From the NCBI GenBank assembly GCA_013286795.1, contig JABDFA010000008.1, forward strand, positions 7,283 to 71,282: a DNA stretch of 64,000 nucleotides, given 5' to 3'. Below, piece after piece: positions 56,548 to 63,417 of the stretch. The translations under genes and the position numbers were made by a program. Position 1 is the stretch's first letter, and every line of letters begins with the position of its first letter. The notes beneath the pieces were generated by a model. The model saw only the letters and a program-made list of their open reading frames with translations. It made no database searches and was not told the origin of the DNA. This DNA is from Candidatus Babelota bacterium. GTDB taxonomy: Bacteria > Babelota > Babeliae > Babelales > JABDEC01.

Positions 56548-59500
56548 TTATACAATATAATATGATATAAGTGTTACGGTAAACATAACTGTCAAAATAA
56601 AGGGCCAAAATATGGTTATTTTTAAGTGTTCGAATAATTTAGTTTTTTCTCCAGTACTTATATCTATGCATAGTAGAACCATTAAGAGATATATGACAAA
56701 TAATAAGTATTCAATATAAACTACACCTGAAACACCAAGCTTGCTCCTTAAGGATTGATGTAACAATATTGTTGGGAAAAGTAATGCGATATAGATTGAT
56801 ATGGTAGAAATCATATTAAGTGTTATTGCATTCATTGACAATATTTGTAATAGAAACATGGCTAGAATTATAACAAGTAGAGGGAGTATAACAAGTATGA
56901 AAGCATCCATAGGGTTTCTGCTTGCCATAATATTATAAGTCAAAATATTATGGGTAATTATATTTTTATGTATGCCATAATTTGTGCTTGTTGGAATACT
57001 TTTAAATGAGAAAAATGTTTTGTCTATATCATATTTTTCTAATAATTCTTTATTTATACCTATTTTTTGTTCAGGAGCAAGATTTTTATAGCTATCAATA
57101 AATGGTGTTAATATTACGTCATCTTTTACAAAAGGATATTCTAGATCAATTTCGATTTTTTGTTTATCGAAAGGATAAAAGAAGAAAGAGCTGCGTTGAA
57201 ATACTGTTCCATTTATTTGAAATGCTATATTAAGATAATCCTTTTCCTTGTTTTGATACATTTCTTTAATGTTTAAATTCGAAGAAGCATTTTGTAATGT
57301 TATTTGTGGTTTCAAATCAAGTTTTGGATATTTTTGCCAAATTGAAGCAAAGAATGAGCAGTTATTTGAATCAGAAATATCAATAAAGTTAGCATAAATT
57401 CCTGTAGGTATAAGAATAGTTGTTGGTGTTATAATTTTTTCTAATGCTCTTTGGACATCAATTTCATTTGTTATTGCTGATTGTTGCATTGCAAAATATG
57501 AGTTTTTGTATGTTAATAAATAAATATAAATAGTTCCAGATAATAGCACTAGTGAATACAGTATACTGTATTTAGCCATCGTTTTTATTTGTAGATTATA
57601 AGGCTTTATAACTAGAAAGCCTGAGATCAGTATTATTAACATTAATACAATCAATATTAATATGGATAAGTTTGATAAAAAATTAAATGTTTGATCCAAT
57701 TCAACATATTGAAATAATTCAGTATCACTGTAAAATGTTATGAATACCCATTTTGTTAATGGTGTAACCTCAAAAAAAGCGTAAATTGTATGATTATTTT
57801 CATCTATAAATTTTTCTATTCCTGAAGACTCTTCTTTAACTCTAGATCTTATTTTTAACAAAACATCTTTTTTTGTTATTTTTACAATGTCATCAAATGA
57901 TAAATTTCCTAAAACATATTCTTCATTATAATGATAAATTAATCTATCATCTTCAGATAATATTAATGAGATCTCTTCTTTTTGTGGGCCCAGATAAGCA
58001 ATAACTTTTTTTATGTTACTGAATGGATAGACGACAGCGACAGTTCCTATAGGTGTATTTGGATTATCTTTTGAAAAGAACGGTTCAGTATATATAATTG
58101 ATAAATCTTTTGATTCTTTTTCAATAAAAGGACCAATCCATTCAGGTTTATTCTTGAGTTTAAAATCATACCATTTAATTTGATTTATATTTTTTGAGGA
58201 TATTTCTGTTTTTCCGGTAGATATTTTATCATTTTGATTTAAAGAATATATATAATATGGTGGTTTTTCATTTCCATAAGCAACGTATATACCTGTGATA
58301 TTTTTATTACCAGATAATTTTTTAGATAAATAATCTTTTAATTCTTTTTCATTAAATTTTTGATTGTTTAAATCTAAACAGATAGAATGATTAAAAAATT
58401 TTATAGAATCCAAGTTCTCTGAAAGAATGGAACCAACACTTTTGACATCCACCGCTGTGCTGTTAATTTGTTGGTCATCAAAATAGGAGCTCTCTTTTTT
58501 ATACTCTCTTATTAAATATCCAAGCAAAATGGCTAATGCTGCTAATAAAATCAAAGCTGAATCACTGATTATTGATTTTAAATATTTTTTAAAAGAATTT
58601 AAAATAATAATTTTTCTAGTATTAAATATTATTATTATCCAGAAGATATATATAAGTATTAAAATAAATAATATAGTTTTTATAATATTTGGAACAAAAA
58701 GAACTTCTGACAGATCCTGTTCAACAGCAATGGACCAACTTGAATCAATTAAATACCCTCTAGCATTAAGAACTAATTTATCATTTACAAACATTATATC
58801 AGATCCAACTACATCACCTAATACAGATAATGTAACTGGGGATTTGATCGATAATGTTTTGTAAAATTTAAAAGCATAATTAGGATTAAATCTGGTATTA
58901 AAAATAATTAAAGCTTGATTGTTTGATCTTTTGGAAATAAAAATATCACCAGTATTACCCAAGTTATTATAATATTTAGAAATTATTTTATAAATAGTTT
59001 CAGCATCTATTTTTATTGCCAACATCCCAATGACATGATCTTCAAATAAACAAGGAAAGGATATAAAAAGGGAATTTTCTGATTTATCTTTTGGGCCAAT
59101 AGGTCCAAATTCAGAGATGATAGGGGTTAATAAAGTCTGAGTTAGATTAATTAATTGAGAAATGATTTGATACTCATCTATTTTCTCATTAACATTAATT
59201 CCTGTAGGAATATTATTTTTTGCTGAAAATATCAAATTGCCTTCAGGAGTTATAAATATTATATCTTTATATTGCTCTAAAGAATTAGTCTTTTTAAATT
59301 CATTTATTAAATCATTTTTCTTTTTGAGATACTCAGGGGAATTAAGAGATGTCGATTTTAAATCATTTAAATATTTAAAAATTTGCTTTTGTTCAACGAT
59401 TACTTTGGTAAAATTTTCAATATTATTATTAAAATAATCTTTAATTTCATTATTAAGTTTTTCTTGGACAGAATTAAGATGAGACTTTGCACTTTCTATG

Positions 59501-59598
59501 GTTATATTTTTGAAATATACATATCCCGCAATACTTAATAATAGAAAACTGCTGATAATAATTAAAAATTTTAATTCACTTAATTTTATTTTTATCAT
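56548..59598 (-). CDS. Multidomain membrane receptor: two Cache-like extracytoplasmic modules plus a C-terminal pentameric ligand-gated ion channel (pLGIC/Cys-loop-family) module
   Basis: AAGGAA RBS. TM1, then a ~270-aa Cache-like domain (DIIFITPEGNLIFSA, HVIGMLAIKIDAETIYKII, SSWSIAVEQDLSEVL). TM hairpin, then a second Cache-like domain (WYDF...PEWIGPFIEKESKDLSIIYTEPFF...PIGTVAVVYPFSNIKKVI). TM hairpin, then the pLGIC module: beta-sandwich with FFFYPFDKQKIEIDLE (YPFDKQ at 57160-57177), M1 RNPMDAFILVILPLLVIIL, M2, M3 VVYIEYLLFVIYLLMVLL, short M3-M4 loop, M4. Confidence 0.7.
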   Translation of the reverse strand: MIKIKLSELKFLIIISSFLLLSIAGYVYFKNITIESAKSHLNSVQEKLNNEIKDYFNNNIENFTKVIVEQKQIFKYLNDLKSTSLNSPEYLKKKNDLINEFKKTNSLEQYKDIIFITPEGNLIFSAKNNIPTGINVNEKIDEYQIISQLINLTQTLLTPIISEFGPIGPKDKSENSLFISFPCLFEDHVIGMLAIKIDAETIYKIISKYYNNLGNTGDIFISKRSNNQALIIFNTRFNPNYAFKFYKTLSIKSPVTLSVLGDVVGSDIMFVNDKLVLNARGYLIDSSWSIAVEQDLSEVLFVPNIIKTILFILILIYIFWIIIIFNTRKIIILNSFKKYLKSIISDSALILLAALAILLGYLIREYKKESSYFDDQQINSTAVDVKSVGSILSENLDSIKFFNHSICLDLNNQKFNEKELKDYLSKKLSGNKNITGIYVAYGNEKPPYYIYSLNQNDKISTGKTEISSKNINQIKWYDFKLKNKPEWIGPFIEKESKDLSIIYTEPFFSKDNPNTPIGTVAVVYPFSNIKKVIAYLGPQKEEISLILSEDDRLIYHYNEEYVLGNLSFDDIVKITKKDVLLKIRSRVKEESSGIEKFIDENNHTIYAFFEVTPLTKWVFITFYSDTELFQYVELDQTFNFLSNLSILILIVLMLIILISGFLVIKPYNLQIKTMAKYSILYSLVLLSGTIYIYLLTYKNSYFAMQQSAITNEIDVQRALEKIITPTTILIPTGIYANFIDISDSNNCSFFASIWQKYPKLDLKPQITLQNASSNLNIKEMYQNKEKDYLNIAFQINGTVFQRSSFFFYPFDKQKIEIDLEYPFVKDDVILTPFIDSYKNLAPEQKIGINKELLEKYDIDKTFFSFKSIPTSTNYGIHKNIITHNILTYNIMASRNPMDAFILVILPLLVIILAMFLLQILSMNAITLNMISTISIYIALLFPTILLHQSLRSKLGVSGVVYIEYLLFVIYLLMVLLCIDISTGEKTKLFEHLKITIFWPFILTVMFTVTLISYYIV

Positions 59599-62155: not shown

Positions 62156-63417
62156 TTGTTTCCCCATCTTTGTGGCATTTCAGCAAGATATTTTATCCAT
62201 TCTTCTTCTGTTCTTGCTTTTTTATTAAACTTTGATAAATATAAATTACTTGGCATGATTACAGGTTCTACCGGAATTTTAGATTCCCATTCTATATTAA
62301 AATTTTTGGCTTTATCAGCTTTACCAATGAATACAGGACTCCAAATATTTCCATTTTGAGTAACTTGAAATATCTCGGAAGGTCCATTGAAAATTATTTT
62401 TTTCAAACTGGGAATAACTTCTTTTGTATCTAGAGAGCCGGCATTTTTTACTGCTAATGCCCATAAATTAACACCATAATATGCTGATATCATCGAAGCG
62501 CTTAAATTTTTGGTATATCCAAATTTTGCTTTAAATCTTTTAATAAAGTTAAAATTTCTTTTTGATGGTATAGATTGAAGATACAATGTGCAAATATAAG
62601 TATTTGCGATATTAGTTAGATCAATTAAATTGAATTCATTTTCAGATAAACTAAACGATATAGTATTTATTTTTATTCCTTTTTTTGCTAAAAGATTTAA
62701 TTCTTTAAAAAATAAGATATTACTTAATCCACTGATACTATTTATTATTAAATCCGGTTTTGTTTGTTCAATTTTTTCAATTACTTTGTCAAAGTTTTCA
62801 GATCCAAGCGGGATAAGTTCTGCGCCTACAATGTCCACTCCTATTTGAGGGGCAAACTCTTTTATTAAATCATTTTCAGCTACTGGATATGCATAGTCCG
62901 ATCCGACTAAAAATATTTTTTTACCTAAATTATTCAAGCCCCAGGCTACACTAGGGATAGCTTGTTTGTTTCCACATAGGGACATATAAATTACATTCGT
63001 GCTTTGTTCAAGCCCCATATATTCAGCAGGGTAAAAAAGTAATTTATCATATTCTTCTACTACTTCCTTTACAGCTTTTCTTGCTGCTGAGGTCCATGTT
63101 CCAAAAATTACTTCAACTTTTTTTTCTTTAATTAAAATCTTTGCTTCTTTTGCAAATATTTCAGGGTCAGATTTGCCATCAGCTAAAATAGGTTCAATTT
63201 GTTTGCCAAAAAGTCCACCATTACTATTGATTTCATTTATAGCAAATAAAGTCATACTTATTATTTGTGCTTCGCTAATTGCAAGTTCACCAGTTCTGGA
63301 ATGTAATATTCCTACCTTGATGGTTTCTATTTTTTTTGGATAAAGTATAAAATAAATGTAACTTATTATAATTCCAACTATTATAGCTGTAATAAAACTT
63401 CTATTTTTTATTAACAA
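62146..63417 (-). CDS. UrtA/AmiC-family periplasmic binding protein, membrane-tethered, paralogue 1
   Basis: Same pattern (IKVGILHSRTGEL...FGTWTSAARKAVKEVVEEYDKLLFYPAEYMGLEQSTNVIY; ends RWGNKWQ). First gene of the operon. Confidence 0.8.
   Translation of the reverse strand: MLIKNRSFITAIIVGIIISYIYFILYPKKIETIKVGILHSRTGELAISEAQIISMTLFAINEINSNGGLFGKQIEPILADGKSDPEIFAKEAKILIKEKKVEVIFGTWTSAARKAVKEVVEEYDKLLFYPAEYMGLEQSTNVIYMSLCGNKQAIPSVAWGLNNLGKKIFLVGSDYAYPVAENDLIKEFAPQIGVDIVGAELIPLGSENFDKVIEKIEQTKPDLIINSISGLSNILFFKELNLLAKKGIKINTISFSLSENEFNLIDLTNIANTYICTLYLQSIPSKRNFNFIKRFKAKFGYTKNLSASMISAYYGVNLWALAVKNAGSLDTKEVIPSLKKIIFNGPSEIFQVTQNGNIWSPVFIGKADKAKNFNIEWESKIPVEPVIMPSNLYLSKFNKKARTEEEWIKYLAEMPQRWGNKWQ

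Follow-up and report, generated by a model that had tools for sequence, protein, structure and literature searches.

Introduction

Bacterial ion channels of the pentameric ligand-gated type (pLGICs) fused to periplasmic binding protein (PBP) domains of the PBP-I type and to MCP-N/Cache domains were reported by Tasneem, Iyer, Jakobsson and Aravind in 2005, together with conserved operons of pLGIC genes and stand-alone PBP-II or Cache genes, for which a cooperation in chemosensing was inferred (PMC549065). Here, a cluster of four genes was analysed that is located on a stretch of 64,000 nucleotides (nt) of contig JABDFA010000008.1 of a Candidatus Babelota bacterium, this whole stretch being referred to as the window in the following. 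The cluster encodes three UrtA-like substrate-binding proteins (SBP1, SBP2 and SBP3) and a receptor (gene 4) that combines two Cache domains with a C-terminal pLGIC module. In our reading, to which a probability of about 55% is assigned, the cluster represents a two-part, binding-protein-dependent ionotropic chemoreceptor. We are not aware of a bacterial ion channel whose dependence on a binding protein has been demonstrated.

Receptors of the dCache-like type that depend on a binding protein have been described as LuxP/LuxQ in Vibrio and as BasB/BasT and CosB/CosT in Halobacterium (Matilla et al. 2021, PMC8050422). BasB is a Peripla_BP_6 (PBP-I) protein, and the outputs covered in this review of binding-protein signalling are chemoreceptors, kinases, cyclic di-GMP enzymes and Ser/Thr kinases, with ion channels being unmentioned (PMC8050422). 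UrtA-type proteins bind urea with high affinity and enclose it wholly in a closed pocket; the structure of Prochlorococcus UrtA with urea (8HIC) revealed eight conserved contacts (W120, S122, Y141, Q144, E146, Y190, N246 and S274), and mutation of these residues reduces or abolishes binding (PMC10392092).

Results

Conservation of the binding-protein and receptor gene pair

Nine non-self genomic neighbourhoods of the closest UrtA-like homologues were used as contexts for comparison. In eight of the nine, a dCache-type receptor gene is located directly downstream of the binding-protein gene, several of these pairs overlapping, and urtBCDE genes were found in none of the nine. An arrangement of the LuxP/LuxQ and BasB/BasT type, i.e. 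a binding-protein gene with an adjacent dCache receptor gene on the same strand, is consequently present in the window and in 8/9 contexts.

Two of the contexts contain a receptor with the architecture of gene 4. At locus L091, the UrtA-like gene overlaps the gene of a 945-aa Cache-Cache-pLGIC protein that aligns with gene 4 from end to end (27% identity, E 2e-102) and matches the channel profile described below with E 4e-30. At locus L098, the UrtA-like gene overlaps the gene of a 946-aa Cache-Cache-pLGIC protein (25% identity, E 3e-43; channel profile E 3e-34) that carries a YPFDNQ loop. The pair of UrtA-like and Cache-Cache-pLGIC genes to which an initial annotation of the window had drawn attention was thereby found again, and neighbourhoods of a stand-alone binding protein and a pLGIC are present in three lineages (the window, L091 and L098). 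The GC contents of these three channel-linked loci are 27%, 37% and 32.5%, and since the receptors are only 23-27% identical, the two genes have stayed together across a wide evolutionary span. On this comparative evidence, the linkage between binding proteins and Cache-pLGIC receptors is not a coincidence.

Six of the remaining contexts show the binding-protein gene next to other dCache proteins. At L095 and L099, the next gene encodes a Cache-Cache protein that matches both Cache domains of gene 4 and has no output domain, at L087, L092 and L097 it encodes a dCache_1-HAMP-histidine kinase, and at L096 it is a truncated dCache gene. Locus L089/L090, from a low-GC relative, is syntenic with the window via the upstream DivIC gene and contains a second binding-protein gene, after which the contig ends.

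Further genes were observed at three of these loci. At L095 (1103-5105), the UrtA-like gene overlaps the gene of the 663-aa Cache-Cache protein, which is followed after a gap of 27 nt by a 242-aa Ion_trans_2 gene of the K+ channel type whose filter reads TIGYGD; the locus has the appearance of a sensor and a channel that are split, with a pore of a different family. At L087 (10001-18576), the UrtA-like protein P0380 has an extra C-terminal part of ~150 aa with a weak dCache_1 match and is followed by a 1344-aa dCache-HAMP-GAF-HisKA-HATPase-REC hybrid kinase and then by CheR, CheB and a REC-SpoIIE phosphatase. At L099 (8001-15874), a 754-aa fusion protein of Metallophos and Peripla_BP_6 adjoins the UrtA-like/Cache-Cache pair, and an FmdA_AmdA formamidase/acetamidase gene located ~3.4 kb past the pair, at a distance of roughly 5 kb from the gene of the binding protein, hints at a link to small-amide metabolism.

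The channel module as such is not accompanied by binding proteins: a UrtA-like gene within ~10 kb was found at 0/80 channel loci of other genomes, and therefore the linkage is a trait of the subfamily that bears the first Cache domain and not of the whole channel family. A search of the whole gene-4 protein against genome contigs gave no match, and the metagenome scan yielded no more than one pLGIC-like gene (L094), which stands alone and is unrelated.

Topology and Cache domains of gene 4

Nine transmembrane (TM) segments were recognised in gene 4 by hydropathy, in the order TM1, ectodomain 1, TM2-TM3, ectodomain 2, TM4-TM5, ectodomain 3 and M1-M4, and all three ectodomains are accordingly predicted to face the same side of the membrane. 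According to Pfam, the first two ectodomains are of the dCache_1 type, and these two regions of dCache_1 matches substantiate the description of gene 4 as Cache-Cache plus channel in the initial annotation.

The two Cache domains have different relatives. The dCache domains of binding-protein-linked kinases match gene 4 only at the first Cache domain (Cache1, residues ~14-327), with E values of 5e-18 for L097, 8e-16 for L093, 1e-15 for L096, 6e-14 for L092 and 1e-10 for L087. The second domain (Cache2, within residues ~340-688) is the only part of gene 4 to which twelve channel proteins of other genomes align that have a single Cache domain and the common length of ~700 aa, and none of the Cache2-type proteins matched Cache1. 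Gene 4 thus reads, from its sequence relationships, as a dCache sensor of the binding-protein type with a TM hairpin that was grafted onto a widespread Cache-pLGIC receptor. Because the kinases with binding proteins share Cache1, and the channels that have Cache2 only are without a nearby UrtA-like gene, Cache1 is, judging from this association, most likely the docking site of the SBPs, rather than the pLGIC ectodomain. The earlier idea that the binding proteins act as accessory subunits gained comparative support from the recurrence of the gene pair as far as their cooperation with the receptor is concerned, and the pLGIC ectodomain as their docking partner gave way to Cache1 as the likelier one.

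The pLGIC module of gene 4

Searches with Pfam (PF02931 and PF02932) and NCBIfam models gave no Neur_chan match even at E<=10, neither for gene 4 nor for its C-terminal 327 residues alone nor for homologues. With phmmer, the C-terminal module matched a nicotinic receptor subunit with E 0.013, and a profile of 3 sequences reached GLIC with E 0.0017. A profile of 45 sequences matched 69 sequences of the PDB, with all 60 that were listed being of the GLIC type (best E 2.9e-6), and its alignment to GLIC extends from the beta6-beta7 loop through M4.

The module was also modelled with AlphaFold2. The model based on the alignment of 3 sequences was unusable (predicted local distance difference test, pLDDT, 49), whereas an alignment of 80 sequences led to a model with a pLDDT of 80.6 and a predicted template modelling score (pTM) of 0.82, in which beta strands are followed by four helices. 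Comparison of this model with the PDB by Foldseek gave 976 matches at E<=1e-3, with GLIC as the top match (E 5.8e-12, probability 1.0, TM score 0.63-0.69 over about 320-330 columns) and with GABA-A and glycine receptors also among the matches.

The hallmarks of gating are in place. The Pro-loop YPFDKQ ([YF]-P-[FL]-D-x-Q) aligns with Y119-P120-F121-D122 of GLIC, and its P and D do not vary in either of the family alignments (45 and 80 sequences). Arg894 and Pro906, likewise without variation in the family, correspond to R192 and P204 of GLIC, the spacing from R to P being 12 in both. M2 of gene 4 has no recognisable motif for cation or anion selectivity, its alignment to GLIC being uncertain. 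By profile and by predicted fold, the C-terminal module of gene 4 is a pLGIC subunit, and gene 4 would accordingly be expected to assemble as a pentamer and to conduct ions in a ligand-gated manner. The pLGIC at the C-terminus that had been proposed from the sequence has no Pfam match, but it is upheld by the profile match to GLIC and by the fold.

The channel family defined by the module (window 56551-57531) comprises 1,776 representative clusters (50% identity) at E<=1e-3 and 1,071 at E<=1e-30. Stand-alone proteins of ~380 aa that have a TM helix at the N-terminus make up the majority of the members, and many others have ~700 aa with a single dCache_1 domain in front. The members that were scanned have no Pfam Neur_chan match, and they are nearly always annotated as 'hypothetical', with one member being named 'Neurotransmitter-gated ion-cha...' in UniRef. 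Gammaproteobacteria, Cyanobacteria, Nitrosomonas and Rhodobacteraceae are among the hosts. At L002/L003 (317-3802), the stand-alone family member P0001 (381 aa) is followed after 34 nt by the gene of a 768-aa protein that matches dCache_1 faintly and whose similarity to the Cache region of gene 4 is marginal (BLAST, E 0.045); this may be a split form of Cache and pLGIC.

Family, anchor and tail of the binding proteins

All three binding proteins matched Peripla_BP_5, with E values of 3e-105 (SBP1), 5e-124 (SBP2) and 1.6e-123 (SBP3), and TIGR03407, the UrtA equivalog, with 335.6, 404.0 and 383.0 bits, respectively. These scores are all under the curated TIGR03407 cut-off of 492.75 bits. Together with the pairwise identity of 50-52%, the matches agree with the assignment of genes 1-3 as UrtA-type paralogues in the initial annotation. 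Of the models named there for profile searches, Peripla_BP_5 and dCache_1 were matched, TIGR03407 was matched below its cut-off and the Neur_chan models were without match.

The PDB entry closest to the SBPs is 8tg1 ('Extracellular ligand-binding receptor', E 6e-100), on which a literature search found nothing relevant; the UrtA structures 7s6f, 7s6e and 8hic are more distant, with E about 1e-77 for SBP2. AmiC (1pea) matched with E 4e-45, compared to 1e-77 to 6e-100 for the structures of the UrtA type, and AmiC, which had been named alongside UrtA in the initial annotation, is a distant relative. A regulation like that by AmiC was rejected on account of this distant relationship, of the membrane anchor and of the window being without an amidase or AmiR-like gene.

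The N-terminus of each SBP contains a single hydrophobic segment of 15-20 residues (residues 7-25 in SBP1), which is separated from the first beta-strand (IKVGILHS) by 6-10 residues. No cysteine was found in the N-terminal region of SBP1-3, and therefore there is no lipobox; the single N-terminal helix and the missing lipobox had been recognised already in the initial annotation. At its C-terminus, SBP2 has a tail with the pattern W..FL..LY..WG..W, which has no counterpart in the solved UrtA/AmiC structures of the PDB, and a Trp-rich tail is also present in SBP1 and SBP3.

These features extend to the clade of the closest SBP2 homologues. A C-terminal W..[FL]L..L...WG..W tail is present in 112 of 120 members, the N-terminal uncharged run has a median length of 19 residues (at least 18 in 84/114), and the first strand follows after a linker with a median length of 9 residues. 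Members of the anchored, tail-bearing UrtA-like clade, which are annotated as 'urea ABC transporter substrate-binding proteins', are probably sensors rather than parts of a transporter. The tandem arrangement of binding-protein genes in the window has a fused counterpart in P0278 (633 aa, on a JGI contig of 2829 bp), in which two UrtA-like domains, each ending in a Trp-rich tail, are arranged in tandem on one polypeptide, the N-terminus of which is cut by the end of the contig.

Ligand pockets

The pocket columns of the alignment were mapped to 8HIC, in which the chain index equals the number given in the paper minus 23. SBP2 has kept 8/8 residues of the urea pocket. In Prochlorococcus UrtA numbering, SBP1 carries the changes Q144E, E146M and N246S, with a similar pattern in its apparent orthologue P0276, and SBP3 carries Y190T and N246S. 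As all eight urea contacts are kept in 114/116 members, urea or a very similar compound is the most likely ligand of the UrtA-like clade, as far as pocket residues can tell. Since SBP2 alone retains the full pocket, with SBP1 and SBP3 having diverged, the triplication looks like a diversification of specificity, which would fit several ligand-specific sensors on one receptor.

Organization of the gene cluster

The coordinates of the cluster and of its domains are given in Table 1. The open reading frames and junctions of four packed genes on the minus strand, as originally annotated, were all borne out. SBP1 and SBP2 overlap by 22 nt, or by 10 nt if the alternative ATG of SBP2 is used, which is preceded by a GGGGA Shine-Dalgarno-like motif that is better than that of the longer start. 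The junction of SBP2 and SBP3 is a gap of 3 nt and that of SBP3 and gene 4 a gap of 13 nt. Such tight spacing on the same strand is consistent with a single transcript and with translational coupling. The upstream neighbour of SBP1 is a divergently oriented DivIC-like gene beyond the intergenic gap. A promoter scan around the cluster gave 48 matches compared to 55.8 expected, which is chance level in AT-rich DNA of ~27% GC, and no Rfam elements were found around the operon.

Table 1. Location of the genes, domains and presumed regulatory region of the cluster in the window
Feature	Position	Strand	Description
Presumed promoter region, 5' intergenic of SBP1	63418..63535	(-)	118-nt AT-rich gap
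SBP1	62146..63417	(-)	423 aa, TTG start, AAGGA motif upstream
SBP2	60878..62167	(-)	429 aa; alternative of 425 aa from ATG at 62155
SBP3	59612..60874	(-)	420 aa; 412 aa according to gene callers (gene call of the contig copy)
Gene 4	56548..59598	(-)	1016 aa, 9-TM receptor
dCache domain 1	58687..59511	(-)	residues ~30-304; proposed docking domain
dCache domain 2	57664..58518	(-)	residues ~361-645; dCache_1 match at 376-619
pLGIC extracellular beta-sandwich	56905..57510	(-)	residues ~697-898; YPFDKQ 808-813, pre-M1 Arg894
pLGIC transmembrane domain M1-M4	56551..56904	(-)	residues 899-1016; M1 Pro906; conserved M2-end motif LLHQSLR

Downstream of gene 4, at a distance of 138 nt and on the same strand, a DUF5092 protein of 444 aa is encoded (window 55075-56409), which has a signal-like N-terminal segment and its own AAAGGGGGAA ribosome-binding motif. 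A DUF5092 gene is absent beside the L091 and L098 homologues, and because it is not conserved there, the protein is probably outside the system.

Other genes of the window

No ABC (ATP-binding cassette) signature of the LSGGQ type was found in any frame of the 64-kb window, the Walker A motifs present belonging to GTPases. Likewise, Pfam results for the scanned open reading frames of the window (at least 100 aa) and the annotation of the overlapping contig copy revealed no permease, ATPase, urease or amidase domains. The motif and Pfam scans thus corroborate the earlier observation that the window contains no urtBCDE-like, urease or amidase gene.

At least seven ankyrin-repeat proteins (window 2693-4286, 11682-12446, 15599-16291, 24053-25554 and 49283-50083) and a WD40-like protein (window 4838-6097) are encoded elsewhere; these proteins and a GC content of 25-35% are merely compatible with a eukaryote-associated (Dependentiae-like) bacterium. 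A single open reading frame of 432 aa (window 10418-11716) combines a TrmD tRNA (m1G) methyltransferase domain with a second domain, a SAM-dependent RNA methyltransferase (Methyltrn_RNA_4). A gene of the NhaC-type Na+/H+ antiporter family (window 21566-23167) lies ~33 kb from the cluster; it is not adjacent and no link is claimed, an operon that joins a pLGIC gene to that of a Na+/H+ symporter being known from another bacterium (Tasneem et al., PMC549065).

Discussion

Proposed mechanism

In the mechanism that we infer, the four genes would be co-transcribed, and uncleaved signal anchors at their N-termini would tether SBP1-3 to the inner membrane on its outer side. SBP2 would bind urea or a very close analogue, and SBP1 and SBP3, with their altered pockets, would bind other small ligands. 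Upon capture of a ligand, the binding proteins would dock on the first dCache domain of gene 4 or shift their contact with it, gene 4 being predicted to pentamerise via its C-terminal pLGIC module. A conformational change transmitted through the stack of Cache2 and ectodomain would then open or modulate the pore, and a periplasmic chemical signal would give rise to a flux of ions or shift the membrane potential. The initial annotation had proposed that the SBPs serve the receptor and not an importer, and comparative genomics supports this direction, with physical interaction, co-transcription and channel activity being what we infer beyond it.

More tentatively, the anchored, tail-bearing UrtA-like protein and its cognate dCache domain may form an undescribed, portable two-protein cassette for the sensing of urea or small amides, which would have been joined in evolution to at least three outputs, namely histidine kinases, a pLGIC pore and a K+ channel encoded by a neighbouring gene, and in which three paralogues with different pockets would converge on one pentameric channel in the case of the window.

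Several observations weigh against the binding-protein-dependent chemoreceptor. The pLGIC module falls below every Neur_chan threshold of Pfam, and just two further channel-linked instances were found (L091 and L098), with a third relative being truncated. The triplication of the SBPs is specific to the lineage of the window. The distinction between an anchor and a cleavable signal peptide in the SBPs was made by heuristics only, and in the AT-rich DNA around the cluster promoter and terminator scans were at chance level and hence uninformative. Finally, the analysis covered 64 kb of the source genome, on a contig of 78.6 kb, and a urtBCDE set may exist elsewhere.

Alternative explanations

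The last point leads to the explanation that the SBPs belong to an ABC-type importer of urea or small amides with genes elsewhere in the genome, in which case the clustering would reflect shared regulation and the receptor would sense ligands of its own via its Cache and pLGIC ectodomains. It is common for one transporter to have several binding-protein genes, including extra and orphan ones, the SBPs are clear homologues of UrtA with a complete urea pocket in SBP2, and only part of the source genome is visible. Moreover, Cache and pLGIC ectodomains are able to bind ligands unaided (PMC8050422, PMC549065). We nevertheless regard an importer as quite improbable, given that a dCache-type receptor gene, usually an overlapping one, and never urtBCDE accompanies the binding-protein gene (8/9 and 0/9 contexts), that anchor and C-terminal tail set the clade apart from transport UrtAs, and that all three SBPs score under the UrtA equivalog cut-off in a window without ABC components. 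The SBPs might also be constitutive structural subunits, or buffers that hand their ligand over to the Cache or pLGIC pocket, as in the 'preliminary concentration' that Tasneem et al. already proposed for operonic PBP-pLGIC pairs (PMC549065), and a short tether of ~6-10 residues would indeed keep them at the membrane beside the receptor. The closed high-affinity urea pocket of UrtA-type proteins is, however, ill-suited to a hand-over (PMC10392092), and binding-protein-dependent dCache-like receptors of the LuxPQ type signal via a protein-protein interface (PMC8050422), which makes a buffering or purely structural role very unlikely in our view.

The nature of the output has to be considered separately, as the SBPs and the Cache-Cache part could be a real sensor whose pLGIC-like module is a pentamerising scaffold, a transducer to some other partner, or constitutively closed or leaky. 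The module is only ~15% identical to GLIC and has no Pfam match, no selectivity motif is recognisable in its M2, and the Cache-Cache sensors at L095 and L099, which are without the pLGIC module, imply that such a sensor can signal in other ways. On the other hand, the family is invariant at the P and D of the Pro-loop, at the Arg that precedes M1 and at the Pro of M1, with a spacing identical to that of GLIC, the four-helix transmembrane domain has been retained across the 1,776 representative clusters, and the separate partner gene at L095 itself encodes an ion channel, pointing to an ionotropic output. A role of the module other than that of a gated channel is thus considered unlikely, and an ionotropic chemoreceptor is retained as the preferred reading.

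Significance

If the more tentative reading as a portable cassette is true, the cluster would encode an ion channel that is, as the first one in bacteria, gated by interchangeable binding proteins of the soluble type, i.e. a logic like that of ionotropic glutamate receptors (iGluRs) on a Cys-loop-type pore. The locus and its relatives form a testable system: the SBPs are small and, without the anchor, soluble, and one likely ligand (urea) can be predicted. The relatives offer natural variants with a kinase, a pLGIC or a K+ channel as output, and the three paralogues are suited to tests of combinatorial gating. Two groups are mislabelled by current annotation, namely the pLGIC family missed by Pfam (about 1,800 representative clusters) and the clade of UrtA-like proteins that are probably sensors.

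Comparison with known systems

With the pLGICs of Tasneem et al., the receptor of the window shares a pLGIC core behind Cache-type domains and a stand-alone binding-protein gene in a conserved neighbourhood. The initial annotation had stated that it knew of no described binding-protein-dependent pLGIC, which has to be corrected insofar as operonic PBP-pLGIC cooperation was already predicted in the 2005 paper that it cited (PMC549065). The partner is of another type, since the binding proteins of the window are PBP-I (UrtA/Peripla_BP_5), whereas PBP-II had been reported for operonic partners and PBP-I only in fused form (PMC549065). The SBPs of the window further differ in their membrane anchors, clade-specific Trp-rich tails, triplication and diverged pockets, and the pLGIC module comes from a large divergent family that is missed by the Pfam Neur_chan models. 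Compared to DeCLIC, which has contiguous jelly-roll N-terminal domains, the receptor of the window has two dCache domains split by TM hairpins and 9 TM segments per subunit. To our knowledge, no pLGIC with an N-terminal domain other than DeCLIC has been characterised structurally, and DeCLIC is also the only prokaryotic pLGIC for which the function of accessory domains is known.

As in LuxPQ and BasBT, a dedicated binding-protein gene adjoins the gene of a dCache-type receptor and no transporter is present. The output in the window is, however, an ion-channel module and not a kinase or chemotaxis transducer, and the binding proteins are UrtA-type with several paralogues per receptor. A literature search for pairings of UrtA-like proteins with dCache domains or kinases found no paper. 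The UrtA proteins of UrtABCDE systems (8HIC, 7S6E and 7S6F) have the same fold and family as the SBPs, and SBP2 shares the eight urea contacts with them. They differ from the SBPs, which have no urtBCDE nearby (window and nine contexts), carry an anchor of TM length instead of a typical cleavable signal as well as an extra tail, and in the case of SBP1 and SBP3 are without two or three key hydrogen-bonding residues.

Against this background, the separate, anchored and tail-bearing PBP-I partner of the UrtA type, the recurrence of the cassette with kinase, pLGIC and neighbouring K+ channel outputs, the double-Cache receptor with 9 TM segments, the three paralogues with diverged pockets and the large pLGIC family invisible to Pfam are new. 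By functional analogy, the cluster would resemble the eukaryotic iGluRs, in which a venus-flytrap module controls an ion channel; the iGluR clamshell forms a fusion with a tetrameric pore of the K+-channel-like kind, whereas in the window a separate clamshell would act via Cache domains on a pentameric pore of the Cys-loop/Pro-loop type.

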